Assembly: GCF_003790525.1 (NCBI RefSeq)
Contig: NZ_CP033635.1
Reading direction: 5' to 3' (one strand)
Source: Escherichia coli
GTDB taxonomy: Bacteria > Pseudomonadota > Gammaproteobacteria > Enterobacterales > Enterobacteriaceae
DNA: 64,000 nt
Both the position numbers and the translations under genes were made by a program. The notes under the pieces were generated by a model, which saw only the letters and a program-made list of their open reading frames with translations, did not search any database and was not told where the DNA came from. Positions 10,802 to 52,018 of the stretch are shown piece after piece (the stretch's first letter is position 1; each line of letters opens with the position of its first letter).

Positions 10802-12379
10802 ATGACGGAAAACATTCATAAGCATAGCATCCTCATTCTGGACTTCGGTTCCCAGTATACTCAACTGGTTGCGCGCCGCGTGCGTGAGCTGGGCGTTTAC
10901 TGCGAACTGTGGGCGTGGGATGTGACAGAAGCACAAATTCGTGACTTCAATCCAAGCGGCATTATTCTTTCCGGCGGCCCGGAAAGCACCACCGAAGAAA
11001 ACAGCCCGCGTGCGCCGCAGTATGTCTTTGAAGCAGGCGTACCGGTATTCGGCGTTTGCTATGGCATGCAGACCATGGCGATGCAGTTGGGTGGTCACGT
11101 TGAAGCCTCTAACGAACGTGAATTTGGCTACGCGCAGGTTGAAGTCGTAAACGACAGCGCACTAGTTCGCGGTATCGAAGATGCGCTGACCGCAGACGGT
11201 AAACCTCTGCTCGATGTCTGGATGAGCCACGGCGATAAAGTTACCGCTATCCCGTCCGACTTCGTCACCGTAGCCAGCACCGAAAGCTGCCCGTTTGCCA
11301 TTATGGCTAACGAAGAAAAACGCTTCTATGGCGTACAGTTCCACCCGGAAGTGACTCACACCCGCCAGGGTATGCGCATGCTGGAGCGTTTTGTGCGTGA
11401 TATCTGCCAGTGTGAAGCCCTGTGGACGCCAGCGAAAATTATCGACGATGCTGTAGCCCGTATCCGCGAGCAGGTAGGCGACGATAAAGTCATCCTCGGC
11501 CTCTCTGGTGGCGTGGATTCCTCCGTGACCGCAATGCTGCTGCACCGCGCTATCGGTAAAAATCTGACTTGCGTATTCGTCGATAACGGCCTGCTGCGTC
11601 TCAACGAAGCAGAGCAGGTTCTGGATATGTTTGGCGATCACTTTGGTCTGAACATTGTTCACGTTCCGGCAGAAGATCGCTTCCTGTCAGCGTTGGCCGG
11701 CGAAAACGATCCGGAAGCAAAACGTAAAATCATCGGGCGCGTTTTCGTTGAAGTATTCGATGAAGAAGCACTGAAACTGGAAGACGTGAAGTGGCTGGCG
11801 CAGGGCACTATCTACCCTGACGTTATTGAATCTGCCGCATCTGCAACCGGTAAAGCACACGTCATCAAATCTCACCACAACGTGGGCGGCCTGCCGAAAG
11901 AGATGAAGATGGGCCTGGTTGAACCGCTGAAAGAGCTGTTCAAAGACGAAGTGCGTAAGATTGGTCTGGAGCTGGGCCTGCCGTACGACATGCTGTACCG
12001 TCACCCGTTCCCGGGACCAGGCCTTGGCGTTCGTGTTCTGGGTGAAGTGAAGAAAGAGTATTGTGACCTGCTGCGCCGTGCTGACGCCATCTTCATTGAA
12101 GAACTGCGTAAAGCGGACCTGTACGACAAAGTCAGCCAGGCGTTCACCGTCTTCCTGCCGGTACGTTCCGTTGGCGTAATGGGCGATGGTCGTAAGTATG
12201 ACTGGGTTGTCTCTCTGCGTGCTGTCGAAACCATCGACTTTATGACCGCACACTGGGCGCATCTGCCGTACGATTTCCTCGGTCGCGTTTCCAACCGCAT
12301 TATCAATGAAGTGAACGGTATTTCCCGCGTGGTGTATGACATCAGCGGCAAGCCGCCAGCTACCATTGAGTGGGAATGA
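10802..12379 (+). CDS. guaA: GMP synthase (glutamine-hydrolysing)
   Basis: 525-aa translation [40 protein letters not shown]... ends IEWE; immediately downstream of guaB. Confidence 0.95.
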
Positions 12380-12381
12380 TT
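12365..12381. repeat. attL core, 17-bp direct repeat ATTGAGTGGGAATGATT spanning the guaA stop codon
   Basis: Exact copy at 51948-51964; encodes the last guaA codons (I E W E stop). Confidence 0.8.
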
Positions 12382-12571: not shown

Positions 12572-13822
12572 GTGCTTACCGATACAAAATTAAAGAACCT
12601 CAAGCCACAGGACAAACTGTACAAAGTTTCCGATCGTGACGGGCTGTATGTAGCTGTGCTTACGTCAGGTACGGTCTCGTTTCGCTATGACTACCGTATC
12701 AACGGTCGCCGCGAAACACTGGTAATCGGGCAGTATGGGCGTGACGGTATCAGCCTGGCAGAAGCGCGAGAAGAACTGATTGCTGCAAAGAAGCTGCTTA
12801 AAGCAGGCCAGTCGCCGGCTGCGGCTAAACGTGACGGTATCAAAAAGATTCGTGGTGCCGAGACGTTTGCGGTACATACCGACAGTTATATGAAACACGT
12901 CATCCTGGCTGAAAGTACCCGCGCAATGAAGCAGGCAGTGATCGACCGTGACATACTTCCTGTTCTTGGCAACAAAATGATGACTGAAATTACCACATCG
13001 ATGGTTCGTGATTTGTGTGACCGGATTGTCGAACGCGGTGGTCGGGCAACAGCAGTACAGGCCAGGGAGATCATTAGCAGCGTATACCGTCACGCCAATG
13101 ACCGTGGTCATGGTTTGTTTAATCCTGCGGCTGACATTAAACCTTCGTCTATCGCCATATTTAAACCACGAGAGCGAACACTGACACCAGAAGAAATTGG
13201 TCTGTTCTTCCGCACGCTGGATGCCATTGGTGCTATGGGCACTATGAAAATGGCTTTAAAGCTGGTGCTTATCACTATGGTTCGTAAAGGCGAATTCACC
13301 AATGCAACGTGGGACGAAATAGATTTTAAAAAATGGACATGGACAATTCCTTCAGACCGCATGAAGGGAAGCCGGGCGCACGTTATTTACCTGCCAAAAC
13401 AGGCACAGGATATATTGGTTGGGTTGCAGATGTGCGCTGGTGGAAGTGAATATCTGGTTCCTGGTCGTTACAATTTCCGGAAGCCATTATCTAATGCCGC
13501 ACTGAACTCTCTGATCGACAGAACGGTGAAAATAATAAATGAAGATGGTGAGCATATTCAGGGCTTCACCGTACACGATATGCGCCGTACAGCCAGTACG
13601 TTGTTGCATGAGGCTGGTTATCCTTCAGACTGGATTGAAAAGGCTCTGGCACATGAGCAGAAAGGTGTGCGCGCCGTATATAACAAAGCGGAATACGCCA
13701 GACAGCGCGCCTACATGTTGCAGCAGTGGGCCGATATGATTGATTCCTGGATTAACGGGGAGCATACGGATCTAATTCCGTTCTCCCCGTCGAAGTTTGA
13801 GAAGTGGATGGCGGGGGAATAA
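12572..13822 (+). CDS. int: tyrosine-type phage integrase (P4-like family)
   Basis: GTG start; N-terminus MLTDTKLKNLKPQDKLYKVSDRDGLYVAV and C-terminal catalytic region VHDMRRTASTLLHEAGY...AHEQKGVRAVY typical of tyrosine recombinases; adjacent to attL. Confidence 0.9.
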   Translation: MLTDTKLKNLKPQDKLYKVSDRDGLYVAVLTSGTVSFRYDYRINGRRETLVIGQYGRDGISLAEAREELIAAKKLLKAGQSPAAAKRDGIKKIRGAETFAVHTDSYMKHVILAESTRAMKQAVIDRDILPVLGNKMMTEITTSMVRDLCDRIVERGGRATAVQAREIISSVYRHANDRGHGLFNPAADIKPSSIAIFKPRERTLTPEEIGLFFRTLDAIGAMGTMKMALKLVLITMVRKGEFTNATWDEIDFKKWTWTIPSDRMKGSRAHVIYLPKQAQDILVGLQMCAGGSEYLVPGRYNFRKPLSNAALNSLIDRTVKIINEDGEHIQGFTVHDMRRTASTLLHEAGYPSDWIEKALAHEQKGVRAVYNKAEYARQRAYMLQQWADMIDSWINGEHTDLIPFSPSKFEKWMAGE

Positions 13823-37667: not shown

Positions 37668-40180
37668 TGCCAGTCGTACCAACAGTATCCGGACGTCAGG
37701 TTGAGAGCCGTGGAGTTCAGTCAGCAGGCTTGCAGACGTTTTCTCAGCCAGGTATTGGTGATGCTTTTGTTCTGGCAGGGGAAGAGGCAATTGATGTTTT
37801 TGGGCAGGCAAAACAGCGTGCCAATATTGCCTTGGCTCAGGAGGCATCTCTTAACCTCAGTCAGATAAGCAGTGATTTGCTGAATAATCCTGAAACAGGA
37901 TTGCTTAACCTGAAAGGGAAAAATGCTATTGGAAAAGGCCATGAGTATACGCAGCAGTTTGATGCTCAGGTCGAACAATTGGCTATGTCGCTGCCGGATG
38001 AACAGGCTCGTAATGCTTTCATGCAGCAGGCGCAGCAGCAGCGCATTCAGTTCACTACGCAGGCCGGGCGGCACGAGATAGGGCAAATAAATGCCTACGA
38101 AGAAGGCCAGTTTCAGGCGACGCTGCTGAACAATGGTAAAAATGCCGCAGCATTGTATGGCGACAACGCCGCATACGTATTGGCTAATAAGCAAACTTTC
38201 CAGCAAATTGAGGATTACGGCATTGCGCATGGCTGGAGCGACGAGCAAATCCAGGCCAAGAAAATCGAGTTTAAAGAGAAGGTTGCTGATGCCGCATTGT
38301 CCCAGTGGTCGGCAAACAATGCGACCGCATTCATCCAAAGTAATGGCGAGTTAAGTGATACTGCTGCTGGAGCTCGCCGTGCTGTAGCAGATAGTGACTC
38401 TTCCGAGCGTGCCCGTGGCATACGCAACAATAACCCAGGAAATCTCGAATACAGCAAAACTAATCCGTGGGTAGGCCAGACCGGTGATGATGGTCGATTT
38501 GCTAAATTCGAAACACCTGAACACGGGATTCGTGCATTAGGGCGGAACCTGATGTCGTATCAGAGGCAGGGTATTGATACCGTCAGCGAGATAATTAATC
38601 GCTGGGCACCGCCTACTGATAAAAATGACACTATGTCGTATATCAAAGCAGTGTGCGAACAACTTGGCGTTTCTGCTGATGAGCCTCTCGATGCATCTAA
38701 TCCTGATACCCTGAAGGCGCTTTGTGCAGCCATTATCCATCATGAGAACGGTAGCCAGCCATACAGTGATCAGCAGTTAACTGCTGGTGTCAGTGCAGCA
38801 CTTGGTTTATCAACAATTCCAACCAACATCAAACGCTATACCGGTAATGCAGCATTCGATGCGGCATCTCCTGAGGCGCAGGCAAGTTTTATGCGACAGG
38901 CGGATCAACTGCGTCGGCAGCAGCAGGCTGAATATAAAACGATGATTGACAGCCAGGTTCGCGATGCGACAGCTGCGTATATGCGTGGCGTTGAATTTCC
39001 TAACCCACCTGGTGAGGCTGATTTTATTGCAGCTTATGGAGTCAGAGAAGGAAACCTGCGATATACCGAGTTCAGAAATGCGCAAATCGCCGGACAGTAT
39101 ATAGGCTCTTTCCGCAACATGCCGACAAGCAGCATTACATCATATGTTGAGCAATTACGCCCGGATACTGGTGAGACAGGGGAGGGTTATGCGGCACGAG
39201 CCGCTCTTTATGACAACGTTGTGTCGGCTGCAAGTCAGGTGATAAAGCAGCGACAGGCTGATCCTGTACAGTTCTCTCTTGCCGCCGGACAGGCAAAGCC
39301 TATCGACATGAGCAATAAGGATAACTTTGGACAGAGCGTTGCCTTGCGTGCCGCTCAGGTCAGTGACCTTGCTAAGTCATATGGCACTCCACTGACGTTC
39401 TTTTCCAAAGACGAGGCCAATCAGATCGGTGTTTTCTTTCGTGATGCGCCCGTTTCCCAACAGGCAGCATATCTCGATACCATCAGGCAGAGCACTGGTG
39501 GTGGGCAGGTGTATATGTCAGCACTACAGCAGATCAGTGCCAACGCTCCATCTGCTGCCGTTGCCGGGATACTGATGGATAAGCCAGGTGGTATTTTGGC
39601 AGAAAAAAACTGGTTTAATCCGGATGTTTCCGTGTCTCCTGAAACCGCTGCGCAGACAATTCTTGCTGGCGCGGCGGCTCGTAAAGGTACTGATGACGCG
39701 AAAGGTATTCCGATGCCTAAAGATGCTGATCTTCGCCTTGAGTTTTCTGACATGGTGAAGGATGCATTTGCTGGTGATGCTCAGGGGGCATCAATGGCAT
39801 ACGAGATCGCAAAGGACTATTACGCTGGTGTGATGGCGAAAAAAGGCGTGGTATCAGGCGAAATTGACAATGATATCTGGAAACAGGCTGTTAACGTAGC
39901 TACAGGTGGCGTGCATGACTATAACGGAATGGGGAATGTTCTTTTGCCGTGGGGAATGTCTGCAGAGCAATTCGATAAGCAGGTTAATCAGGCTTGGAAT
40001 GAACAAGTTGTTGGCACAGGGATAAAAACACCGCCTGGTCAGTATGGTTTGCAAAGTTACGGCGATAGTCAGTACCTGGTGAAACTTGGTACTGGTTATC
40101 TGCTAAAAGATGATGGTTCTCCCGTTGTTCTTGATCTGACACAGAAGCGTCAGAGATTCTCCGGAGATATTCCGAAATGA
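37667..40180 (+). CDS. internal virion/ejection protein
   Basis: Start MPVVPTVSGRQ with SD GGAGGATTATA; 837 aa. Confidence 0.4.
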   Translation: MPVVPTVSGRQVESRGVQSAGLQTFSQPGIGDAFVLAGEEAIDVFGQAKQRANIALAQEASLNLSQISSDLLNNPETGLLNLKGKNAIGKGHEYTQQFDAQVEQLAMSLPDEQARNAFMQQAQQQRIQFTTQAGRHEIGQINAYEEGQFQATLLNNGKNAAALYGDNAAYVLANKQTFQQIEDYGIAHGWSDEQIQAKKIEFKEKVADAALSQWSANNATAFIQSNGELSDTAAGARRAVADSDSSERARGIRNNNPGNLEYSKTNPWVGQTGDDGRFAKFETPEHGIRALGRNLMSYQRQGIDTVSEIINRWAPPTDKNDTMSYIKAVCEQLGVSADEPLDASNPDTLKALCAAIIHHENGSQPYSDQQLTAGVSAALGLSTIPTNIKRYTGNAAFDAASPEAQASFMRQADQLRRQQQAEYKTMIDSQVRDATAAYMRGVEFPNPPGEADFIAAYGVREGNLRYTEFRNAQIAGQYIGSFRNMPTSSITSYVEQLRPDTGETGEGYAARAALYDNVVSAASQVIKQRQADPVQFSLAAGQAKPIDMSNKDNFGQSVALRAAQVSDLAKSYGTPLTFFSKDEANQIGVFFRDAPVSQQAAYLDTIRQSTGGGQVYMSALQQISANAPSAAVAGILMDKPGGILAEKNWFNPDVSVSPETAAQTILAGAAARKGTDDAKGIPMPKDADLRLEFSDMVKDAFAGDAQGASMAYEIAKDYYAGVMAKKGVVSGEIDNDIWKQAVNVATGGVHDYNGMGNVLLPWGMSAEQFDKQVNQAWNEQVVGTGIKTPPGQYGLQSYGDSQYLVKLGTGYLLKDDGSPVVLDLTQKRQRFSGDIPK

Positions 40181-41979
40181 GTTACTTTGGCCTTAATCCA
40201 GTAAACCAGAATCAGCAGCTTGACGAAGCAGCATCAAATCCAGTTGGCTTTAACAGCGATGTTGGTTTTTTCGACAATGCTGTAGGAGCGGCATTGTCTG
40301 GTTTGTACTCCGGGCTGGTGGCAAAGCCTGATCAGTTGCTCTGGGCAGGGATGGATAAAATCGTATCCCCGATTGCTCAGTTTGTTAACGAAAACACCTC
40401 GCTCAATGACACTTCAGTTTCATACATTGCCGAGCAGAGAAAACTAGCAGAGCAGCAGGTTAAGCGGCTGACGCCTGATGCCGCGACAACCGGAACCGCC
40501 GGGCAGGTTCTTTATGGGTTGTTCGATATGGGCGGGCAGGCTGTTATCGGTACAACGCTCGGTGGTCCGGTCGGAGGTGCTGCGGCGGTAACTTCGCTAC
40601 AGGGTTTTTCTGAGTTTGAACGGCTGACAGCACAGGGTGTTGATTTCAGGACGGCGCAGGAAGCGGGATTAGTGCAGGGTATTACTGCTGGTGCCGGAAC
40701 ACTGATCCCTATGAGCCTCGGGTTACGTGCTGGTGGTGCGCTGGCGGAAGGTGTGGCGGCTCAGCTTGCGCGGACGGGTGAAAGTTCAGTGCGACGCGCC
40801 GCAGCAACAGCAGTACGTGCAACGCCAGATATTGCCTATGCCGCAGGTACAAATATTGCGTTCGGTATGGCACAGCGTGGGCTTACTGCAAAAACGCTTC
40901 GTGATGGTGGCTATAGCGAAATGGCTAACCAGTATGATGTGTTGGATCGACAGGCAATTGCTATTGATGCTGTTCTTGGGGTGGCGTTTGGTGGTGTCGG
41001 CAGATTTATTAACTCTCGCGGCGAGTCTACAAGCGCACCAAATTTTTCACCAGTTGATATCGATGCTGCACTGGCGGCGAATGCCGCTCATCATGCTGAA
41101 ATTGATATTGCTCCCGGTGTGCCGATCAACGTGCTTTCGCGTAATTCGCACATTCAGGCTCTGCGAAAAGCCATGTCTGATGTTAGCCAGGGGAGACCTG
41201 TAGACGTTGCCAGCATTGTTGAGTCTGCATCTTTCAGTGAAATTCCTGGGCGCAAGAGTCTGCTTTCTCAGGCAGTTAATGAGGCTCTGTCATCTGTAGA
41301 TGATGGAGTAACGGCGCGCGCTATAGAAAATCGGTTGCTTGAAGAACAGGCCGCGCAGCTTTTGCCGCGTGGCGATAGACAGGTTTACCAGTCTGAAATC
41401 GCTAATAGCCAACGAATTATTGAAAATCTCACTGAACAGCGCGCACAAATTCTTGCAGAAGAGCCAACCGGTAGCGGTAAAGCTTTGTCTCGTGCTCGAT
41501 CAGATAAACAGGCCAGACTTCGCGATATTGATCAACGAATCCGGCAGGCACAAGAACGCCTGGAGTTTTCCCGTAACGCGTTGGCTCCGCACGAGCCTGG
41601 CGGTCAGTTTTTTGAAGCTCGAGCAGAACTGGCACGACGACAGCAGGCAGAAAGTGAACTTAATGCTCAGGCTGTTTCATTCTATAAAACAGCAGAGGTC
41701 AGGACGCCAGACGAAGTAGCTCCTTTTGAGCCCGGTAAGATATTGCAACAGACAGAACAAAAAATGATGGCAGATCCGGCAGGAGATATTGATCTGCGTA
41801 TAGCTGAAGACTCGCTGCTTGAATCTCCGGACATGATAATCACCGTGCTGGATGATGATGGTAATCCACAATCGCGCAGTGCGCGTGAAGTACTGGATGA
41901 AGCGAACAGGGAAAGTGAGCAGGCAATACAGGATTCCAGCCTGTTTGATGTTGCTGTGGCGTGTTTCTTGAGAGGTTAA
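40177..41979 (+). CDS. internal virion/ejection protein
   Basis: 600 aa, Ala/Gly-rich N-terminal half. Confidence 0.35.
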   Translation: MSYFGLNPVNQNQQLDEAASNPVGFNSDVGFFDNAVGAALSGLYSGLVAKPDQLLWAGMDKIVSPIAQFVNENTSLNDTSVSYIAEQRKLAEQQVKRLTPDAATTGTAGQVLYGLFDMGGQAVIGTTLGGPVGGAAAVTSLQGFSEFERLTAQGVDFRTAQEAGLVQGITAGAGTLIPMSLGLRAGGALAEGVAAQLARTGESSVRRAAATAVRATPDIAYAAGTNIAFGMAQRGLTAKTLRDGGYSEMANQYDVLDRQAIAIDAVLGVAFGGVGRFINSRGESTSAPNFSPVDIDAALAANAAHHAEIDIAPGVPINVLSRNSHIQALRKAMSDVSQGRPVDVASIVESASFSEIPGRKSLLSQAVNEALSSVDDGVTARAIENRLLEEQAAQLLPRGDRQVYQSEIANSQRIIENLTEQRAQILAEEPTGSGKALSRARSDKQARLRDIDQRIRQAQERLEFSRNALAPHEPGGQFFEARAELARRQQAESELNAQAVSFYKTAEVRTPDEVAPFEPGKILQQTEQKMMADPAGDIDLRIAEDSLLESPDMIITVLDDDGNPQSRSAREVLDEANRESEQAIQDSSLFDVAVACFLRG

Positions 41980-41984
41980 ATTAA

Positions 41985-44459
41985 ATGAGACAGGAATGTA
42001 TACAAGCGGTCCAGCAGGCGGCGCAGCGCACGTTAACGGCGCGAGAAATACAGAACATTGAAGACCGCATTTATCGAAATATGCGCTCCATTGCTCGTGA
42101 TGACCCGATGTCGTGGCGACAACTTTCCGAATCAGAACGGTTGTATCGTGCAGCACAATTGGCATCTGAAGAATTACAGCGAGAAGCGGCATTAAAGAAA
42201 CGTCGTGTGGCCCTCACTATAGCCGCACGTCAGAGATTGGATAAATTTATCAATAGCTATCAAGGGGCTGATGGGAAACTTGGCGCTCTTAACCGTACTA
42301 TTGCTTTTAATGCAGACGGTAAATCGAATTTCCTCTCTGTTGAATCCAGAACAAAAGCCACCCGTGATTATGCATTGAGTCAATTGCAGGAGGCATTCGA
42401 AGCAGTTGATCCTCGCTTTTTTGGTCTGTTTGAAGATGAAGCGGGCGTACGTGACCTGGTATATGAAATGCGGGGGCAAAATACTGGCAATGCTAAAGCA
42501 AGAAAAGGTGCTAAGGCGTGGAGAGAAGTTACAGAGCTGCTGCGCCGCCGGTTTAATGATGCTGGTGGGGACATTGGCTATCTCGAAAACTGGGGGATCC
42601 CTCAACATCATTCTATGGAAAAGGTTGGGGCGGTATCAAAGGATAAGTGGGTTAGCGATGTTATAGGTAAGCTGGATCGCAAATATTATACCCGAGCCGA
42701 TGGACAACTGATGAACGATGCCGAGTTGTCTGAATTTCTTGGAGAGGCTTATAACACGATCGCTACTGGTGGGCTGAATAAGCTTACTGATACCGGAATG
42801 CGAATTTCCGGCGCACGTGCTAACCGTGGTAATGCATCACGACAGATACATTTCAAAGATGCAGATTCCTATCTGCAATATCAGCAACTTTATGGCGATC
42901 GCTCTCTATGGGAAATCATGGTCGGTCACCTGGAAGGTATCAGTAAAGATATTGCGCTGGTGGAAACATATGGCCCAAACCCCGATCATGTTTTCCGCTC
43001 CCTTCTTGATCAGGTTAAGGCAGAAACGGCAACAGCTAACCCGAGTAAAACCGGTAGCGTCGAGCGTCTGGCGAACAAAACAGAGAACTTGTACAACTTT
43101 ATTTCCGGAAAAACACAGCCTGTAGCGAATCCGCACATCGCGCGATGGTCTGACAATATCCGCAACTGGCTGGTTGCCAGCAGACTCGGATCCGCGTTGC
43201 TGTCATCGTTCTCTGATCTTGGAACCATGTATCTGTCTGCGAAGGTTACCAACCTTCCAATGAACCAGTTATTTCGCAACCAGCTTGAAGCTATGGACCC
43301 AACGAACCGTACAGAACTTGCGCGGGCGCGCCGCGCTGGCCTGGCGATGGAATCTCTACTTGGCAGCGTTAACCGCTGGGCGATGGATAATATGGGGCCG
43401 TCTGTGTCTCGTTGGGCGGCAACGGCGGTAATGCGTGCCAGTGGGCTTACAGCATGGTCAGATGCGCACAAGCGCGCCTATGGCGTAACCATGATGGGAA
43501 GCCTGGGAGAAGTAGTGTCACGGACACCAGACCTTCGTAGCCTCGATGACTCTGATTTTCGTATCCTGAAAAGCAAAGGGATTACTGACACAGACTGGAG
43601 CGTATGGAAGCTGGCGCAACAGGAGGACTGGGGGAACGGTAATAATACGATGCTGACACCGGAAAGCATTATGCGTATCCCTGATTCAGCAGTTAAACAT
43701 CTTGGTGAGCCTGAACGCGTGAAATTTGAGGCAATGCGTAAACTGCTCGGTGCCGTAACTGAAGAAGTTGATATGGCTGTTATTACACCGGGCGCACGTG
43801 AACAGATGTTCGTAGGGTCTGGTCTTCAGCGTGGAACATGGAAAGGTGAATTAACGAGAAGTGTTTTCCTGTTTAAATCGTTCCCTATCTCGGTAGTTAT
43901 GCGTCACTGGCATAGAGCTATGGGGATGCCGTCTGCTGGTGGGCGTGCGGCATATATAGCAACGTTTTTAGCAAGCACAACCATGCTTGGTGCTCTTTCC
44001 ATGCAGATTACTGATCTTATTAATGGGAGAAATCCAAAAGAAATGACCGGTGACAACATGGTTAAATTCTGGATAAATGCATTTTTAAAAGGTGGTGGGG
44101 CAGGGTTGTATGGTGATTTTCTTTTCTCTGACCACACCAGGTACGGGAGCGGCGCACTAGCGTCGATGCTTGGCCCGGTAGCTGGTCTGGTTGATGACGT
44201 AGTGAAGATTGCTCAGGGCATACCGTTAAATGCTGTGGAAGGGAAGAATGAGCAGACTGGTGGTGATCTGGTTAAGCTTGGGAAAGGTTTGATGCCTGGT
44301 GCGAATCTCTGGTACTTGAAGGCGGCTCTCGATCACATGATCTTTAATCAGATGCAGGAGTATTTTTCACCAGGCTATTTGCGTAAAATGGAGCAACGTT
44401 CGAAGAAAGAGTTTAACCAGACATACTGGTGGCGACCTCAGGATGTCACTCCGCAATAA
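41985..44459 (+). CDS. large internal virion/ejection protein
   Basis: 824 aa, last gene of core structural block. Confidence 0.4.
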   Translation: MRQECIQAVQQAAQRTLTAREIQNIEDRIYRNMRSIARDDPMSWRQLSESERLYRAAQLASEELQREAALKKRRVALTIAARQRLDKFINSYQGADGKLGALNRTIAFNADGKSNFLSVESRTKATRDYALSQLQEAFEAVDPRFFGLFEDEAGVRDLVYEMRGQNTGNAKARKGAKAWREVTELLRRRFNDAGGDIGYLENWGIPQHHSMEKVGAVSKDKWVSDVIGKLDRKYYTRADGQLMNDAELSEFLGEAYNTIATGGLNKLTDTGMRISGARANRGNASRQIHFKDADSYLQYQQLYGDRSLWEIMVGHLEGISKDIALVETYGPNPDHVFRSLLDQVKAETATANPSKTGSVERLANKTENLYNFISGKTQPVANPHIARWSDNIRNWLVASRLGSALLSSFSDLGTMYLSAKVTNLPMNQLFRNQLEAMDPTNRTELARARRAGLAMESLLGSVNRWAMDNMGPSVSRWAATAVMRASGLTAWSDAHKRAYGVTMMGSLGEVVSRTPDLRSLDDSDFRILKSKGITDTDWSVWKLAQQEDWGNGNNTMLTPESIMRIPDSAVKHLGEPERVKFEAMRKLLGAVTEEVDMAVITPGAREQMFVGSGLQRGTWKGELTRSVFLFKSFPISVVMRHWHRAMGMPSAGGRAAYIATFLASTTMLGALSMQITDLINGRNPKEMTGDNMVKFWINAFLKGGGAGLYGDFLFSDHTRYGSGALASMLGPVAGLVDDVVKIAQGIPLNAVEGKNEQTGGDLVKLGKGLMPGANLWYLKAALDHMIFNQMQEYFSPGYLRKMEQRSKKEFNQTYWWRPQDVTPQ

Positions 44460-44468
44460 GGAACAACA

Positions 44469-44882
44469 ATGAAGGAATTATTGCTGTTATCGGTATTTTT
44501 GATATCCGCTTGCTCGACATCCTATGATGTTTATGACGGTGTTGATAAGGCATATTGCGACAAAGTTAAAATGGATTTTTCTCTTGCCAAGACGGCGAAG
44601 GATAGTTGTATTGATCACTACGTCAAGACTTATACCAAGCCAGCCTCATCGGCATCTGATATTGCTGAAGGTGCTGTGTTTGAGTGTAACAAGGTGATAT
44701 CCATCGCAGCGAGTTCTTCATACGATGCTGCTGTATGTGCAATGGCTGAAAGAAACGGCATGTCAGTGCAAAAAATTAATAGCATGATAAGCAGTAATGA
44801 CGAAGCCAAAATAAGAACTGATATCAGCTCGGTGAAAAAAGATGCCATGAACAGAGTTGTAAAATATCAGTCATCTTTATAA
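44469..44882 (+). CDS. lipoprotein (candidate superinfection-exclusion/cargo)
   Basis: Signal peptide with lipobox LISAC; low GC; followed by terminator. Confidence 0.5.
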   Translation: MKELLLLSVFLISACSTSYDVYDGVDKAYCDKVKMDFSLAKTAKDSCIDHYVKTYTKPASSASDIAEGAVFECNKVISIAASSSYDAAVCAMAERNGMSVQKINSMISSNDEAKIRTDISSVKKDAMNRVVKYQSSL

Positions 44883-44885
44883 GTC

Positions 44886-44897
44886 GTGACATGTCAC
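44886..44897. promoter_or_regulatory. 12-bp perfect palindrome GTGACATGTCAC (copy 2)
   Basis: Identical to 24761-24772; followed by hairpin aggccgc tttc gcggcct plus T-run. Confidence 0.4.
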
Positions 44898-44920
44898 AGG
44901 CCGCTTTCGCGGCCTTGTTT

Positions 44921-45082
44921 TTAACGAATGCCACCGCCACCCGGGCGGGAATCCGCAGAACGCCCACCGCAGCGGGAGCCGTCAGCAGCAGTGTCGCTGT
45001 CGTGCTGACAACGACCGGCAAAGGCCTGAGTTGAAGCTACCAGAGACAACAAAACGAACAGTGCAGCAAATGCTTTTTTCAT
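44921..45082 (-). CDS. small secreted Gly/Arg-rich peptide with two Cys (53 aa precursor)
   Basis: MKKAFAALFVLLSLVASTQAFA signal peptide then GRCQHDSDTAADGSRCGGRSADSRPGGGGIR. Confidence 0.3.
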   Translation of the reverse strand: MKKAFAALFVLLSLVASTQAFAGRCQHDSDTAADGSRCGGRSADSRPGGGGIR

Positions 45083-45152
45083 TGTGAAATTTCCATCTAT
45101 AAGCCACCTCAATGTGGCGTCAATGAGTGTAGCACTGACTTTTGTTTCGCCC

Positions 45153-45175
45153 ACAAAAAAGCCCGCAGCGCGGGC
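45153..45175 (-). terminator. rho-independent terminator after two-gene cassette
   Basis: gcccgc agcg cgggc hairpin with T-run on minus strand. Confidence 0.5.
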
Positions 45176-45615
45176 TATTCTTCTTCATCATTAAAAAGCG
45201 GATTGTTGTTTCCATCTGATGAAAGGAAAGGTATGTGTTCTCTTGAAAATCCAACAATGACAATTTCATTATCATTTTTTGCATAATGAATGCATTCATT
45301 AGAATGCCTTCCGCCAGGGTTGAAATTTAAGTTAATGGTATAATTCTTAAATGTGTTTGGATACCATGTTGGCCCACAATGATAATGCCAATAATTCTCT
45401 TGCTCATAATTGTCTGAGCCGGGAATTTTATCATGGTTATCATCAACCCACGAGGGCTTGTTTTTTCCAACAAGCGCCCTTCCATTGGCAACATCCTCTA
45501 AAAAACTTTGTATGATTTTTATTTCATCATCAGTAAGGAAAGGTCCGTCTACAGCGAAAGGGGTGTTGCTTTCCCCATGTAGAAAACTATTAGATATTCT
45601 AATGTTAAACTTCAA
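45175..45615 (-). CDS. hypothetical ~147-aa protein, downstream gene of two-gene cassette (candidate toxin/effector)
   Basis: TTG start with SD AGGAG 6 nt upstream (an in-frame ATG at 45756 has no SD and overlaps the upstream gene); contains WHYHCGP and GGRHSNECIH segments; low GC. Confidence 0.4.
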   Translation of the reverse strand: MKFNIRISNSFLHGESNTPFAVDGPFLTDDEIKIIQSFLEDVANGRALVGKNKPSWVDDNHDKIPGSDNYEQENYWHYHCGPTWYPNTFKNYTINLNFNPGGRHSNECIHYAKNDNEIVIVGFSREHIPFLSSDGNNNPLFNDEEE

Positions 45616-45635
45616 GGAAAACTCCTGATGTGCTT

Positions 45636-45803
45636 CTATTTGGAGCGAAATGCCGCCTTGAAGTCGCTGAAAGATGTTCCTGTCTGGTAAACCATATCCT
45701 TGTCGCGCTCTTTGCTTGCGCGGCCAAGCATAACTTTTCCAATGACATCCCAGCATTGCTTGGCTTGTTCATTGTGCTGAGTACGATTTTTCAACGCTGT
45801 CAT
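45636..45803 (-). CDS. hypothetical 55-aa protein, upstream gene of two-gene cassette (candidate antitoxin/regulator)
   Basis: ATG with SD AGGAGG; MTALKNRTQHNEQAKQCWDVIGKVMLGRASKERDKDMVYQTGTSFSDFKAAFRSK; not in ORF track (<60 aa). Confidence 0.4.
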   Translation of the reverse strand: MTALKNRTQHNEQAKQCWDVIGKVMLGRASKERDKDMVYQTGTSFSDFKAAFRSK

Positions 45804-45815
45804 ATCGCGCCTCCT

Positions 45816-45830
45816 TTACCTTTAAGGTAA
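45816..45830. promoter_or_regulatory. TTACC-N5-GGTAA operator-like site (perfect) upstream of two-gene cassette
   Basis: TTACC TTTAA GGTAA. Confidence 0.5.
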
Positions 45831-45902
45831 TAGTACGCTATTCACCCACAGTCTGCAATCTGTACAGAATTATTTAAAGGCACATCCCTGTGCCGCCGCC
45901 CG

Positions 45903-46592
45903 TCAGAAGAACCCAGCCTTGTCGTTGATGTACTCCGCGTGGGTCTGGATATCACGCAGGCATTTGCTCACACCAACAATGTAGCAGAACATGGTGGTCA
46001 GCTCCGCCGCCGCGCCCGATACGTCGTGCCCGTCTTCCTGTAACTGGTTCAGCAGATTCATCAGCAGTGAGTTCTCCGTCAGGCCGAGAACACCAGACGG
46101 AGAATGAATCAGGCTGCGGTAGCCGGGCTTCAGTGGGGCACTGTAGGTTTTGTTCTCTATCTTCATTGCCTGCATCACTGCTGATGCTGTGGCGTTGGCT
46201 ACCTGGTCGGCAACTATCTTTATGCGTTCTTCCTGCGGGAGCGAGTTTTTAATGTAACTTCCGGTGCGGCGGATCTGAGGAAGAACCTCACCTGTAACCC
46301 ATTTACGAAAGCGGTAGGGGATAGTGCCTGGTGTCACTGCGTCGCGGCAGCGGAGGATCAGTGTGTAGAGGCCTGACTCGTTGATAATATTGGTTTCACC
46401 TTGACGGCCTAAGTTAAATTTAGCCCTTTCATCATCATCAAGAGATTTTATTGACATAGTGGGGTTTGTCAGTTGAAGAGCTTTAATAACGTCTTTGGCA
46501 ACAAACCAAGGATTTCCATCAATAACAATGGCTCGAATGGTGGCTTCTGATTCAAAATGAAAAACAGATGGGGTTACGTTAGCAGTCATAGT
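45903..46592 (-). CDS. Bro-N domain protein (antirepressor-like)
   Basis: Start MTANVTPSVFHFESEATIRAIVIDGNPWFVAKDVIKALQL typical of Bro-N/KilA-N-type N-terminus; SD AAAGGTGAT. Confidence 0.55.
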   Translation of the reverse strand, partial: TMTANVTPSVFHFESEATIRAIVIDGNPWFVAKDVIKALQLTNPTMSIKSLDDDERAKFNLGRQGETNIINESGLYTLILRCRDAVTPGTIPYRFRKWVTGEVLPQIRRTGSYIKNSLPQEERIKIVADQVANATASAVMQAMKIENKTYSAPLKPGYRSLIHSPSGVLGLTENSLLMNLLNQLQEDGHDVSGAAAELTTMFCYIVGVSKCLRDIQTHAEYINDKAGFF

Positions 46593-46855
46593 GATCACCT
46601 TTGTAGTTAGGTTAATCACCACTACCGACGCCAATCGGTTGGTGGTGAACTGTGCAGGGTTGGCGTAACCGGCTACAAAGGACCCGGCGCACCTTTCGGT
46701 GCCCCCACACAGCCCACCATAGAATAGGTGCGCTTTACACATAAAAAAACCGCTTATGCGGCATATGTGCCTCTGTAGTAACCCGGGACGCCAATCCCGG
46801 CACTGGATTTTGCCAGTGCCCGATTACTATGGCACAAGAGGAGTGCGATGTAAAT

Positions 46856-46870
46856 TTACCGAAAAGGTAA
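46856..46870. promoter_or_regulatory. TTACC-N5-GGTAA operator-like site (perfect)
   Basis: TTACC GAAAA GGTAA. Confidence 0.5.
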
Positions 46871-46901
46871 TAATAAACACTCTACTTGGTAATTGCAAAC
46901 C

Positions 46902-47159
46902 TTATCTGGTTTGTTTTCGTAATTGTTCGGCACAATAGTCGAGATGTGTTTGCAGATCCCGCATAGACATCTGTGAGCTGGTGACGTAGTTAATCAGTGC
47001 AGTCAGTTCGGCAAGTGGGCCATCGACATTAAATCCATCCTTATCGAGATCCCGGAGTAATTTCATCAAGTGCGATCCCTCCACCAGTGACCTGACGCCT
47101 CCCGGCGTGTGAATCCTTTCGGTAAATCCGTCTTCCAGTGGATAGTGATACTGCTGCAT
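46902..47159 (-). CDS. small protein homologous to the C-terminal domain of the adjacent Bro-N protein
   Basis: IHTPGGVRSLVEGSHLMKLLRDLDKDGFNVDGPLAELT aligns with IHSPSGVLGLTENSLLMNLLNQLQEDGHDVSGAAAELT of 45903-46592. Confidence 0.45.
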   Translation of the reverse strand: MQQYHYPLEDGFTERIHTPGGVRSLVEGSHLMKLLRDLDKDGFNVDGPLAELTALINYVTSSQMSMRDLQTHLDYCAEQLRKQTR

Positions 47160-47235
47160 CTTATCTTCTCCATGCAATAACTGTATATTTATACAGTATC
47201 AAATAATTTGTTTGCTATCCAGCACGTTTTGCAAA

Positions 47236-47250
47236 TTACCCGAAAGGTAA
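47236..47250. promoter_or_regulatory. TTACC-N5-GGTAA operator-like site (perfect) in divergent region upstream of tailspike
   Basis: TTACC CGAAA GGTAA. Confidence 0.5.
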
Positions 47251-47354
47251 TATCTATTCGTATTTACAGTCTTTCTATCCATATGTGGTTTTTCAGGTAA
47301 TAGAATAACCAGATATGCGGCGCAACGGGTGCTGCGACTATCTGGAGATTTAAC

Positions 47355-49544
47355 ATGACGGTCTCAACCGAAGTTGACCACAACGAATACACCGGTAACG
47401 GCGTTACGACATCATTTCCGTATACCTTCCGTATTTTCAAAAAAACCGACCTGGTTGTTCAGGTGTCTGACCTGAACGGGAACGTAACAGAATTGGTTCT
47501 GGATACCGGTTATAAGGTAACTGGAGCGGGCACTTATAGTGGCGGTGAAGTGGTTCTCCAGTCGCCGCTTGCTGCTGGCTGGCGAATTACGATAGAGCGT
47601 GTGCTTGATGTGGTGCAGGAGACTGATCTTCGCAATCAGGGAAAATTTTTCCCCGAAGTTCATGAAGATGCATTTGACTACCTGACGATGCTGATCCAGC
47701 GATGTTTTGGGTGGTTCAGACGTGCATTGATGAAACCATCTTTGCTTGCAAAATATTACGATGCAAAGCAAAACAAAATTTCTAACCTTGCAGATCCATC
47801 ATTTGAGCAGGACGCTGTAAATAATCGCTCAATGCGTAATTATGTCGATGCTGCAATCGCCGGGGTTGTTGGTGGTTTTGGTTGGTTTATACCGTCAGGA
47901 AGCGGGGCAAGACAACGAACATTTCAAAGCAAAATGAGGGATATAATTTCTCCTTGTGATTACGAAGATAATATTTTTATGATTAAGGAGTTGATATCCA
48001 AAGGCAAAAATGCCGCTGTTTTTAACTCATATTATACTTTTGTTATTACTGTTGGCGAATGGGGTGATTTCCCTACACTCAAAGATGCAATCATTGCAGC
48101 CCAGTCAATGAGACCTATGTGGGATGGTGGTAATGCTTTCTGCGAAATAAGAATTAAGACCGGGCATATTATCAACTATCAAATTGAATTCAGTTCAGGT
48201 GTTGATTTGTCTTGGATTAAAATAACATCAGAAGACTCAGTGGTTTTCTCTGACACTCGTTTGTTTACTAAAATCGTTAGAACGTATTACGAATACAAGT
48301 ATTTATTTTACATTTGCGATGCAGCAAAAAGTCCTGTATTTGCTATTCAGATCGAAGAAAATAGAGATGATAGCGATGTTTGTGCATTTATTGTAACTCA
48401 AAAAGCTGAACTTAATTTCTATCCGTATTCAGGTGCTCGAAAGTTCTACGTTGGAATTCATGGTAGTTTTGGTGCAAAAATTAGTGCATATCATACCGGA
48501 TGTGCTCCTGATGAGGAAAGTGTTGCTGCATATATGCCAGAAGGGTATTACGTATGTGATTTTTCTTATAGCAGATACTCTTCCCTGCAACTGGTAAATA
48601 ATGTCAAGGCATCAATGCCTGTAAGCAAGTTTGAACGGTGCACAGAGAGTACGGTTGCGTCAGTTAATTGTATTTATAATGTTAAAGCAGATTTTCAGGG
48701 GTCAAGTGCAAGCTATTGTTATATAGGATGGAATGTAAGAGATGGTTCAAATGTTAATATACGCGACCATAAAACTATACATTGCTCATATCGTGGATTA
48801 ACCTGCATTCATACAGCATATGTTGATGCAAGACGACATGACGTTGAAGAAAGTGATGCAGAAACAAGTGGTAAAGTCCTTGAACCAAATATTGAAAAAG
48901 GTTTTTATGGATGTGCACTTGGTGTGCGTATTGATGGTGCGGGTTGCGTTGATGTTGCTGGTAATGATATGCGCAATTGTGGAACAGCCGTTAATGCAGA
49001 CACTGGTGCTGTTATTTCAGGAAAGGCTGTAGATATCTCAGGGGCTGAGCTGGGATTTGATTGCCATGCAGGAGCATCTGTTAATTTTCCAAGGCTATGG
49101 GGTACAGATATAAAAAAATTAATGCACCTCCAAGATGGTGTAAGGTTTAACTCTAATATTTGTCATGTATTTGGTGCAAATCCCACAAAAGATATTAGAT
49201 GGATTGATGTAGAGAGATCTGAAGCTTCTTTTATGAATGCAACGCTGGATGCAGATTCAGGATTTATTGCCGACTGTGGTAGTAGGATAACCATTGAAGG
49301 AAGTAAAGTTAAAAACCAAACAATAAGAAGTTTTTTTGGATCATATGTGGCTATAAATAATACTGTTGCTGACAGAACTTATTCAGATATAGCCGATGTT
49401 CCGCAGTTGACTATTAGTGGAGGATCTTTTATTTCTGCTACAGGATATTCTAATTCTGACTCCAGCCCTCTGAGGTTGAGCACAACACGAAATACACTTG
49501 GCGTTGGAGGAGCCATATTTTCAACCAATGGGGAAGTTTCATGA
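47355..49544 (+). CDS. tailspike/tail fiber protein
   Basis: 729 aa; conserved-looking N-terminal particle-binding region then AT-rich C-terminal region with repetitive beta-rich sequence. Confidence 0.65.
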   Translation: MTVSTEVDHNEYTGNGVTTSFPYTFRIFKKTDLVVQVSDLNGNVTELVLDTGYKVTGAGTYSGGEVVLQSPLAAGWRITIERVLDVVQETDLRNQGKFFPEVHEDAFDYLTMLIQRCFGWFRRALMKPSLLAKYYDAKQNKISNLADPSFEQDAVNNRSMRNYVDAAIAGVVGGFGWFIPSGSGARQRTFQSKMRDIISPCDYEDNIFMIKELISKGKNAAVFNSYYTFVITVGEWGDFPTLKDAIIAAQSMRPMWDGGNAFCEIRIKTGHIINYQIEFSSGVDLSWIKITSEDSVVFSDTRLFTKIVRTYYEYKYLFYICDAAKSPVFAIQIEENRDDSDVCAFIVTQKAELNFYPYSGARKFYVGIHGSFGAKISAYHTGCAPDEESVAAYMPEGYYVCDFSYSRYSSLQLVNNVKASMPVSKFERCTESTVASVNCIYNVKADFQGSSASYCYIGWNVRDGSNVNIRDHKTIHCSYRGLTCIHTAYVDARRHDVEESDAETSGKVLEPNIEKGFYGCALGVRIDGAGCVDVAGNDMRNCGTAVNADTGAVISGKAVDISGAELGFDCHAGASVNFPRLWGTDIKKLMHLQDGVRFNSNICHVFGANPTKDIRWIDVERSEASFMNATLDADSGFIADCGSRITIEGSKVKNQTIRSFFGSYVAINNTVADRTYSDIADVPQLTISGGSFISATGYSNSDSSPLRLSTTRNTLGVGGAIFSTNGEVS

Positions 49545-49837
49545 TTAAGAGCATTGATGTCACTCCATTTCTTCACTCGCTTTGCGCTTTTGCGGCTCAG
49601 GTACTGGTTGGTATTTTTACCGGAAACTGGGCTTACGGTGCGATAGCCGGTTGTACGTTCTTCATTGCGCGTGAACACACCCAGGCAGAATATCGCTGGA
49701 TAGAAAAGTTTGGGAAAGGGAAACGTATCAACATGCCGTGGTGGGGAGGTTTTGATCCACGCGTGTGGGATGTGGGAAGTCTGTTGGATTTTGCTGTTCC
49801 TGTTGTTTTTTGTTTTTGTGTTTATTTCTCTATTTGA
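49541..49837 (+). CDS. small membrane protein (holin or serotype-conversion candidate)
   Basis: 98 aa with hydrophobic segments; ATGA overlap with tailspike stop. Confidence 0.35.
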   Translation: MIKSIDVTPFLHSLCAFAAQVLVGIFTGNWAYGAIAGCTFFIAREHTQAEYRWIEKFGKGKRINMPWWGGFDPRVWDVGSLLDFAVPVVFCFCVYFSI

Positions 49838-50030
49838 CTGCTACCGCGCCATTAAATGGTGCGGTATTCAACCTGCTCTTCACTGTTTGTTTCTTCAGAG
49901 TCATGTAAAAGGTGAGCTTTATTCTCGGCATGAAAAACAGGGAATTGACGATGTTAAAGTAACAAAAAACCATAAATGGTTTATTATGCGTAATGCTTTA
50001 CTGTTCAGGAGGTTGTTATGCATATAAACG

Positions 50031-50444
50031 GTGGAAAACATGTCAGCTCAACTAACCAGTGAAACTTTAAATCAGTGGCTTAGCATGAGTTCTCTGGCGG
50101 CGGTGATAGCAGGAGTTCCTCCTGAGGTTGCTTTGGGTGCTTTGGCTGGAGCGGTAATTTTTGTTACCTCTGCAGTAGAGTACCCCATCCGTCGCCGGGT
50201 GCTCCTGTCGATGCTCAGCTTTCTTTGCGGCCTTCTCTTTTACAAACCAGCAGCATCAATTCTTATCGGCATAGCCAGCCTGATCCCTACCATCACGCAG
50301 GACTCTTTTGAAAAAGGGATTGTTTTCTCTGCAGGCGCATTCGTGTCAGCAATTGTCGCTGTGCGTATTGGTATATGGCTCTATCACCGTTCCGATAATC
50401 CACGCGAGTTAATTCCGGGGAGAAAAGACGATGGTAACGCATGA
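50031..50444 (+). CDS. membrane protein, holin-like
   Basis: 137 aa, multiple TM segments, immediately upstream of lysis genes. Confidence 0.4.
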   Translation: MENMSAQLTSETLNQWLSMSSLAAVIAGVPPEVALGALAGAVIFVTSAVEYPIRRRVLLSMLSFLCGLLFYKPAASILIGIASLIPTITQDSFEKGIVFSAGAFVSAIVAVRIGIWLYHRSDNPRELIPGRKDDGNA

Positions 50445-50739
50445 GTTTTTTTTGCTTATCACCAATGCAGTTATTTGCACTGGCATAGCAATTCGCGTTG
50501 TCACATTCCGGCGTAACGGCTCTCAACACCGAAGGTGGGGAGGATGGCTTGCTTATTTCCTGATTGTTGCTGCGGCCAGTATTCCTGTTCGTGTCGCCTA
50601 TGCAATCTGGTTACGTACGCCAATGGCTGTGGATTTATCTGAGGTCATTATCAACGCTGTCATGCTAGCTGCGGTTATTAAAACGCGCGGTAACGTCGTT
50701 CAAATTTTCAAAGTATCGAGGTCTAAACATGGAGATTAA
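50431..50739 (+). CDS. membrane protein, holin-like
   Basis: 102 aa, about 3 TM segments, directly precedes endolysin. Confidence 0.45.
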
Positions 50740-51358
50740 ACAATTCCAGCGAGCTGCTGGTATCAGCGAGGCACTGGCCGCACGCTGGTTCTCGCATATA
50801 ACTTCTGCGATGAAAGAGTTTGGTATCAGCAAACCAGAAGATCAGGCTATGTTTATTGCTCAGGTCGGGCATGAGTCTGGAGGCTTCACCCGGTTGCAGG
50901 AGAATTTCAACTACAGCGTCAGCGGACTGGCTAACTTTGTTCGGGCTGGGCGTCTCACTCAGGGACAGGCCAACGCATTGGGGCGACGTGCAGGCGAACC
51001 ACCATTGCCACTTGAGCGCCAGAGAGCGATTGCCAATCTGGTGTACAGCAAACGCATGGGGAACAATGCCCCTGGTGATGGCTGGAACTACCGTGGGCGC
51101 GGGCTTATCCAGGTTACCGGTTTGAATAACTATCGTGACTGTGGAAACGGTCTTAAGGTTGACCTGCTGGAGAGTCCTGAACTGCTGGCGCAGGACGAAT
51201 ACGCGGCTCGTAGCGCGGCGTGGTTCTTTGCCAGCAAAGGATGCATGAAGTATACCGGCGATATTGCACGTGTAACTCTGATTATCAATGGTGGCCGGAA
51301 CGGCATCGACGACCGGCGCGCGCGATACATCAATGCCAGTAAGGTGCTGGCGGTATGA
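50729..51358 (+). CDS. endolysin, glycoside hydrolase family 19 (chitinase-like lysozyme)
   Basis: [12 protein letters not shown] and [16 protein letters not shown] motifs typical of GH19 phage endolysins. Confidence 0.75.
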
Positions 51359-51837
51359 TCTGGGCATTCGTAAAAGCATACTGGAAACAGTTGGTTATCA
51401 TGGCGATGCTTGCTGTTCTGGTCATATCAGGAGTTGTAGCCTGGAATGCACACGGTAGTCGTCAGTACGACGCCGGGTATGCGCAGGCGGAAGAAGACCG
51501 CAAAGACGAAGAAGACAAAGTTCGTCAGTACTACGAACAGGAGAAAGTGACCAATGAACGTGAAGCGCAGCAAAGAATCGACCAGGCGCGCAATGATGCT
51601 CTTGATGCTGCCGCTCGCGCTGGCAGGTTGCAGCAACAACTCTTTGCCATCCGTGAGCAGCTCAGGCAGTATAACGCCATTGTCGGCGCTGGGACGTCAG
51701 CCGCAGACACCGGAGTTTTGCTTGCCGACGTGCTCAGCAAATCTCTCGAGAGAAACAGACAACTGGCAGAGTATGCTGACCGGGCAGCCGAAGCCGGAAG
51801 AGTCTGCGAAAAACAGTACGACACCCTGACCAGATAG
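51355..51837 (+). CDS. Rz-like i-spanin
   Basis: N-terminal TM segment plus coiled-coil periplasmic domain; follows endolysin. Confidence 0.6.
51554..51829 (+). CDS. Rz1-like o-spanin lipoprotein, embedded in a different frame within Rz
   Basis: Lipobox LALAGC followed by Pro/Ser-rich sequence; fully nested in 51355-51837. Confidence 0.55.
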   Translation: MNVKRSKESTRRAMMLLMLPLALAGCSNNSLPSVSSSGSITPLSALGRQPQTPEFCLPTCSANLSRETDNWQSMLTGQPKPEESAKNSTTP

Positions 51838-51947
51838 CATGGTATTTTTCATGGCACTGATTTCCGGTGACGGTATATAAAACGGTACGGGAAAAGTTGA
51901 GCTTTGGAAAAATGTTATCACTCAATTGGTTATGGTGTCCGTGAATA

Positions 51948-51964
51948 ATTGAGTGGGAATGATT
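51948..51964. repeat. attR core, 17-bp direct repeat ATTGAGTGGGAATGATT
   Basis: Exact copy of 12365-12381. Confidence 0.8.
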
Positions 51965-51993
51965 TTGATCCCTGCACTATGAATGAACAAAAC

Positions 51994-52018
51994 CCTCTGT
52001 TACTACAGAGGGTTTTTT
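51994..52018. terminator. bidirectional terminator between prophage end and yfgI (presumed original guaA terminator)
   Basis: ccctctg ttacta cagaggg hairpin flanked by A-run and T-run. Confidence 0.6.

Follow-up and report, generated by a model that had tools for sequence, protein, structure and literature searches.

The closest described relatives of the gene pair reported here are embedded spanins that Kongari et al. (2018) listed under the family name Bcep176, which appears in both the i-spanin and the o-spanin tables of their survey and whose members include Bcep176, BcepC6B, SPN1S, SPN9TCW, TL-2011b, epsilon15, and phiV10. The nested pair has been annotated in phiV10 (p30/p30a), epsilon15 (p06/p07), and SPN9TCW (SPN9TCW_028), with an inner gene of 276 nt at an offset of 199 nt. 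The epsilon15 i-spanin has been named gp26, with Rz1 inside. A literature search for experiments on the SPN1S, epsilon15, or DUF2514 spanins returned nothing beyond the 2018 survey.

We analyzed a window of 64,000 nucleotides from an Escherichia coli contig (NZ_CP033635.1) and found that positions 51355-51837 of the plus strand almost certainly encode an embedded two-component spanin, the gene pair with which a prophage lysis cassette ends. The pair is an ordinary one that has been catalogued before and is already known. The initial annotation had recognized in it the classic nested layout of two-component spanins, and this view is borne out by PHROG and Pfam matches, a TMD, a lipobox, and the lysis context.

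Architecture of the nested gene pair

51355..51837 (+): i-spanin (Rz-like) gene, an ATG open reading frame of 483 nt encoding 160 aa, the same length as phiV10 p30 and epsilon15 p06
51388..51444 (+): codons of the i-spanin TMD, residues 12-30, best Kyte-Doolittle 19-residue window 2.37
51540..51543 (+): GGAG Shine-Dalgarno-like element, read from the sequence, 10 nt upstream of the o-spanin ATG
51554..51829 (+): embedded o-spanin gene, an ATG open reading frame of 276 nt encoding 91 aa in the +1 frame of the i-spanin; phrog_11621
51614..51631 (+): lipobox LALAG/C, o-spanin residues 21-26, with the codon of Cys26, the predicted lipidation site, at 51629-51631
51698..51766 (+): conserved core of the o-spanin, residues 49-71, including Cys56 and Cys60, with invariant columns and low Rz third-position variability

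The ATG of the outer gene overlaps the stop codon of the endolysin gene (ATGA). Its product matched PF10721 (DUF2514) in Pfam with an E value of 9.3e-43 (146.5 bits, against a cutoff of 26) and phrog_312, "Rz-like spanin," in PHROGs with an E value of 1.6e-59. No second hydrophobic segment was found in the i-spanin, all 19-residue Kyte-Doolittle windows past residue 40 scoring at most 1.33, and the product thus bears the signal of a type II protein of the inner membrane. The periplasmic part is Pro-free and rich in Ala, Gln, Arg, and Glu, and one Cys of the protein (Cys151) is invariant in the homologue alignment. An AlphaFold2 model built with 13 homologues (mean pLDDT, 75) shows helices at residues 10-109 and 115-159, joined at 110-114 by a linker, and the predicted fold plan is the TMD-CC1-linker-CC2 arrangement described for lambda Rz.

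The second reading frame, which had been placed wholly within the i-spanin gene and credited with a lipobox, LALAGC, proved to be correct in both respects. The o-spanin gene starts 199 nt after the i-spanin start, which puts it in the +1 frame, and stops 8 nt ahead of the i-spanin stop, with an in-frame stop codon two codons ahead of its ATG. Relative to the i-spanin it runs from 0.41 to 0.98, and embedded spanins have been reported to show this geometry most often (Kongari et al. 2018). Its product matched phrog_11621 with an E value of 4.3e-41; searches of Pfam and NCBIfam gave no family, only sub-threshold matches to lipoprotein signal peptides (VirB7, YgdI/YgdR).

The inner protein carries a lipoprotein signal. 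Its n-region has a net charge of +4, with three K/R within the first 7 residues, and an 11-residue hydrophobic core (KD11 = 2.43) accompanies the lipobox, the lipoprotein call being based on a PROSITE PS00013-type pattern rule and on hydropathy. Residue +2 after Cys26 is Ser, and with no Asp there the protein is predicted to fit the outer-membrane sorting rule. The description of the periplasmic peptide as proline-rich holds only moderately: the mature part of 66 residues contains 8 Pro (12%) versus 13 Ser (20%) and is richer in Ser than in Pro. In its AlphaFold2 model the o-spanin is largely coil, apart from a short helix at residues 65-75; the model, given its low confidence (pLDDT, 58), may be taken only as consistent with disorder. 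The locus thus combines the features by which the spanin class is recognized, namely, a single i-spanin TMD, an o-spanin lipobox without Asp at +2, nesting, location in a lysis cassette, and periplasmic Cys residues.

Lysis cassette and prophage context

50040..50444 (+): holin-like membrane protein, 134 aa from the ATG; PF16931 (Phage_holin_8), 4e-12; phrog_198, 7e-42
50431..50739 (+): holin, 102 aa; PF05449 (Phage_holin_3_7), 5e-27; phrog_217, 1.5e-35
50729..51358 (+): endolysin of glycoside hydrolase family 19 (GH19), 209 aa; PF00182, 1.5e-8; phrog_181, 2.5e-91
51948..51964 (+): attR core ATTGAGTGGGAATGATT, 17 bp, a duplicate of the last guaA codons and stop; right end of the prophage
51989..52016 (+): hairpin and T-run terminator after the lysis operon; folding energy, -17.8 kcal/mol, z = -5.6

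The cassette runs in the order holin-like protein, holin, GH19 endolysin, and Rz with Rz1 inside, and successive genes overlap by a few bases. The open frame of the holin-like protein begins at a GTG at 50031, and its 405-nt gene has the length of phiV10 p27. The cassette belongs to an epsilon15/phiV10-like prophage (Uetakevirus) of about 39.6 kb, which is integrated at the 3′ end of guaA and lies between guaA and yfgI. A second exact copy of ATTGAGTGGGAATGATT occurs at 12365-12381, at the end of guaA, where zero would be expected by chance. The attR assignment is also supported by alignment with the phiV10 attP region and places the end of the prophage 111 nt past the Rz stop.

The element is a prophage, its junction with yfgI being present in 524 of the 5426 complete E. 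coli genomes (∼10%), and the spanin genes might be real while lying in a decayed, cryptic element whose cassette no longer functions in this strain. We consider this very unlikely. As the initial annotation had supposed, the lysis cassette is intact: all five lysis genes are full length, with no frameshift or premature stop, and each has exactly the length found in phiV10 and epsilon15, both of which form plaques. Over its 2 kb, the cassette shares 98.3% identity with phage isolate HEMP4 (TL-2011b, 92%; phiV10, 89.5%; epsilon15, 82.6%), the integrase at 12572-13822 is full length, and the att repeats are intact. The guaA-integrated prophage thus has a lysis cassette in which none of the four steps (holins, endolysin, i-spanin, and o-spanin) is missing, a result that carries little biological weight.

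Several observations concern the surroundings of the cassette. The terminator at 51989-52016, which was missed by the terminator scan and shown by direct folding, lies on the host side of attR in the junction alignment and probably belonged to guaA originally. At attL, guaA is followed by a look-alike terminator that comes from the prophage, and the host terminator now stands behind the phage lysis operon. Upstream, a 729-aa tailspike is encoded at 47355-49544 (+). Its N-terminus is conserved and of the epsilon15/phiV10 type, and its distal part matches those phages poorly, which suggests a receptor specificity different from theirs. The tailspike stop is overlapped by a 98-aa hydrophobic open reading frame at 49541-49837 (+), which matches phrog_1443 (function unknown) and is without a Pfam match. 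In the tailspike-to-lysis module, this frame sits in the slot taken by the O-acetyltransferase gene oac in phiV10 and by the O-antigen conversion genes in epsilon15, and it may represent a different surface-modification or moron cargo. Phage matches over 40000-51964 fall into three to five pieces.

Selection on the inner frame

The inner reading frame might be open by chance, with only the DUF2514 protein being made, and its length says little on this point. When the codons of Rz were permuted synonymously, a +1 ATG open reading frame of at least 91 codons arose in 2920 of 20000 permutations (14.6%), because a protein rich in Ala, Arg, Gln, and Glu seldom creates +1 stops; length was rejected as evidence for the o-spanin. 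A lipobox-like pattern appeared in 5.4% of the permutations, and a complete lipoprotein-like frame, defined as a start, K/R, a lipobox, and at least 30 further codons, was obtained in 353 of 20000 (1.8%).

Conservation is a different matter. Fourteen relatives were taken from a phage collection, namely, Escherichia phages phiV10, TL-2011b, and EC.W1-9, Salmonella phages epsilon15, SPN9TCW, and Skate, Enterobacter phage BUCT554, four Klebsiella phages, Flyfo siphovirus Tbat1_6, Burkholderia phage BcepC6B, and Ralstonia phage DU_RP_II. The embedded frame is kept in every one of the 14, open in +1 and with a lipobox at the equivalent place. Alignment of 13 o-spanins gave 16 invariant columns, including C26, C56, and C60, and those of the core are Q49, P50, P53, C56, L57, T59, C60, S61, L64, and W71 (QPxxPxxCLxTCSxxL...W). 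Frame, start, lipobox Cys, and invariant core persist even where the Rz proteins are only 26-35% identical.

We then codon-shuffled the Rz gene of each relative and scored its +1 frame against the window o-spanin. In all seven relatives analyzed in this way, the +1-frame similarity exceeded that of all 2000 synonymous-codon shuffles (z, 6.7-11.3), a null that is inflated by shared ancestry for close relatives, such that the distant relatives alone are informative. The similarity scores for BcepC6B were 173 in the +1 frame versus 145 in the Rz frame, and those for DU_RP_II were 152 versus 130.

Variability at the third codon positions of Rz, which are second positions of the o-spanin, was examined in ten Uetakevirus-like sequences. 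A plain comparison of overlapped with non-overlapped codons was uninformative, the whole C-terminal half of Rz being more conserved, and the comparison gained meaning only once it was split by o-spanin segment. Of the Rz third positions, 11 of 60 vary over o-spanin residues 13-72, versus 38 of 66 outside the overlap and 14 of 19 where Rz covers residues 73-91, the o-spanin tail (Fisher's test, p = 8e-6 and 2e-5). The suppression is about 3-fold and confined to o-spanin residues 13-72. In the tail, 15 of the 19 o-spanin residues vary versus 3 of the 19 Rz residues; constraint is partitioned both ways between the frames, the o-spanin tail being variable where Rz is conserved. These data show that the inner frame is under purifying selection of its own, exactly at the signal peptide and the core, because Rz third-position variability tracks what the inner frame encodes. 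The locus is a clean worked example of dual-frame constraint, with Rz synonymous sites suppressed only where the o-spanin is conserved.

Annotation records could also be read as favoring a chance frame. The inner gene is omitted by RefSeq/PGAP in E. coli (e.g., strain HS4, 2556-3038, where the outer gene is a "DUF2514 domain-containing protein") and in most related phage records, and in a collection of ∼15 billion predicted proteins the exact i-spanin was found on 38 contigs while the exact o-spanin sequence was absent. However, such omission repeats a bias of gene callers already described in 2018, 196 of the 528 o-spanins in that survey being unannotated (PMC6139136). Set against the PHROG family match and the alignments described above, a chance frame is exceedingly improbable: conservation across the relatives lies far beyond chance and, on comparative grounds, settles the reality of the predicted o-spanin frame. 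The gene for this putative outer-membrane lipoprotein is being missed systematically, because it is unannotated in RefSeq E. coli while about one complete genome in ten carries the prophage junction.

Proposed mode of action

The membrane location of the two products, their complex formation, their disulfides, and membrane fusion can be proposed by analogy with lambda and T4, following the lambda Rz/Rz1 and T4 work of Berry, Young, and co-workers as summarized in PMC6139136. The i-spanin would lie in the inner membrane and extend its helical domain into the periplasm. The o-spanin precursor would be cut by signal peptidase II at LALAG/C and acylated at Cys26, and Lol sorting would take the acylated protein to the outer membrane. 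The two proteins would then bind each other through their C-terminal parts, yielding a bridge across the periplasm that is threaded through the peptidoglycan and probably stabilized by homotypic disulfides, via Cys151 in the i-spanin and via Cys56 and Cys60 in the o-spanin. At least one periplasmic Cys was reported for 507 of 528 two-component spanins (PMC6139136), and these three predicted periplasmic residues fit that pattern. When the holins have let the GH19 endolysin out and the murein has been broken down, the freed spanin complexes would collapse, fusing the inner membrane with the outer one and completing lysis.

Some phage lipoproteins act in exclusion, T5 Llp being one example, and the inner product might likewise be a genuine lipoprotein that stays in the inner membrane or serves another role such as superinfection exclusion, but we give this hardly any credence, for Asp never occurs at +2 across the homologous o-spanins (the residue is Ser, or Arg in phiV10), nesting within the C-terminal 0.41-0.98 of an i-spanin that ends a lysis cassette is seen throughout and is typical of embedded spanins, and the conserved periplasmic Cys residues of both partners match the spanin pattern.

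Comparison with related spanins and with lambda Rz/Rz1

By its sequence matches, the window pair is assigned to the Bcep176/DUF2514 spanin family (PF10721, PHROGs 312 and 11621), and its alignments with phiV10, epsilon15, TL-2011b, and BcepC6B hold in both frames. It resembles the phiV10 and epsilon15 pairs in gene order, gene lengths (483 and 276 nt), the 199-nt offset, and the +1 frame, and the o-spanins have the same lipobox and Cys pattern. The window o-spanin is 94.5% identical to that of phiV10 and 88.8% identical to that of epsilon15, and the pairs differ by point substitutions only (e.g., K7, N29, and T89 in the window o-spanin).

Homology in both frames extends to siphoviruses Flyfo Tbat1_6 and Skate, whose o-spanins are 60-65% identical to that of the window, and to the N4-like Klebsiella phage FBKp27 (E = 1e-21 and 8e-17), whose o-spanin is 41% identical (E = 8e-17). 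The o-spanins of all three phages have the QPxxPxxCLxTCSxxL core in common with the window o-spanin. Their partner endolysins and holins differ from those of the window, and the order is endolysin before holin in Skate and Tbat1_6. In FBKp27 (vB_KpP_FBKp27), in whose record the o-spanin is unannotated, the pair occupies 543-1052 and 748-1077, and the o-spanin stop falls 25 nt past the i-spanin stop, which makes this pair overlapped rather than embedded. The 2018 survey found no family that mixed embedded with other architectures; the DUF2514/Bcep176 family appears to span both the embedded layout (Uetakevirus, BcepC6B) and the overlapped one (FBKp27).

The pair also has much in common with lambda Rz/Rz1, which is embedded in the +1 frame as well, its o-spanin likewise occupying the distal half of the i-spanin. 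Both i-spanins comprise a TMD, a helix, a linker, and a second helix and carry a Cys near the C-terminus (C152 in lambda, C151 in the window). Both o-spanins are small lipoproteins with little predicted structure, and in both phages the spanin pair follows holin and endolysin and closes the cassette. Differences are seen in the mature o-spanin, which has 66 aa in the window versus 40 in lambda, with 12% versus 25% Pro (10 of 40 residues in lambda Rz1), in the number of periplasmic o-spanin Cys residues (two versus one), and in the endolysin, a GH19 enzyme in the window versus the lambda R transglycosylase.

At the sequence level, neither window spanin matched PF03245 (Phage_lysis) or PF06085 (Rz1) at an E value of 0.1 or below, whereas lambda's own Rz and Rz1 matched these models with E values of 2.6e-54 and 2.9e-20. 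BLASTP comparison of the window pair with the lambda pair gave E values of 0.01 and 7e-4, with matches that did not reach beyond the DNA encoding the signal peptide and lipobox, and hhalign assigned probabilities of 3.6% and 15.5%. Homology to lambda Rz/Rz1 is marginal by both methods and was not accepted.

A weak likeness is nevertheless visible between window positions 51584-51631 and lambda positions 1193-1246, in both frames of the same DNA and at equivalent positions. In the inner frame it consists of an MMLxxMLPLxxxGC signal peptide and a DWQ..L.G motif, and in the outer frame of A.NDAL....AGR. This faint collinear likeness might be a remnant of common ancestry of the DUF2514/Bcep176 and lambda embedded families, which we regard as unlikely. 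Convergence from dual-coding constraints, with a lipoprotein signal in the +1 frame, is the likelier cause because hhalign does not support homology.

The name Rz1-like, given to the inner gene in the initial annotation, therefore stands for architecture and predicted function but not for sequence family: the window pair is built like lambda Rz/Rz1 and is predicted to work like it, while the two pairs belong to different sequence families.
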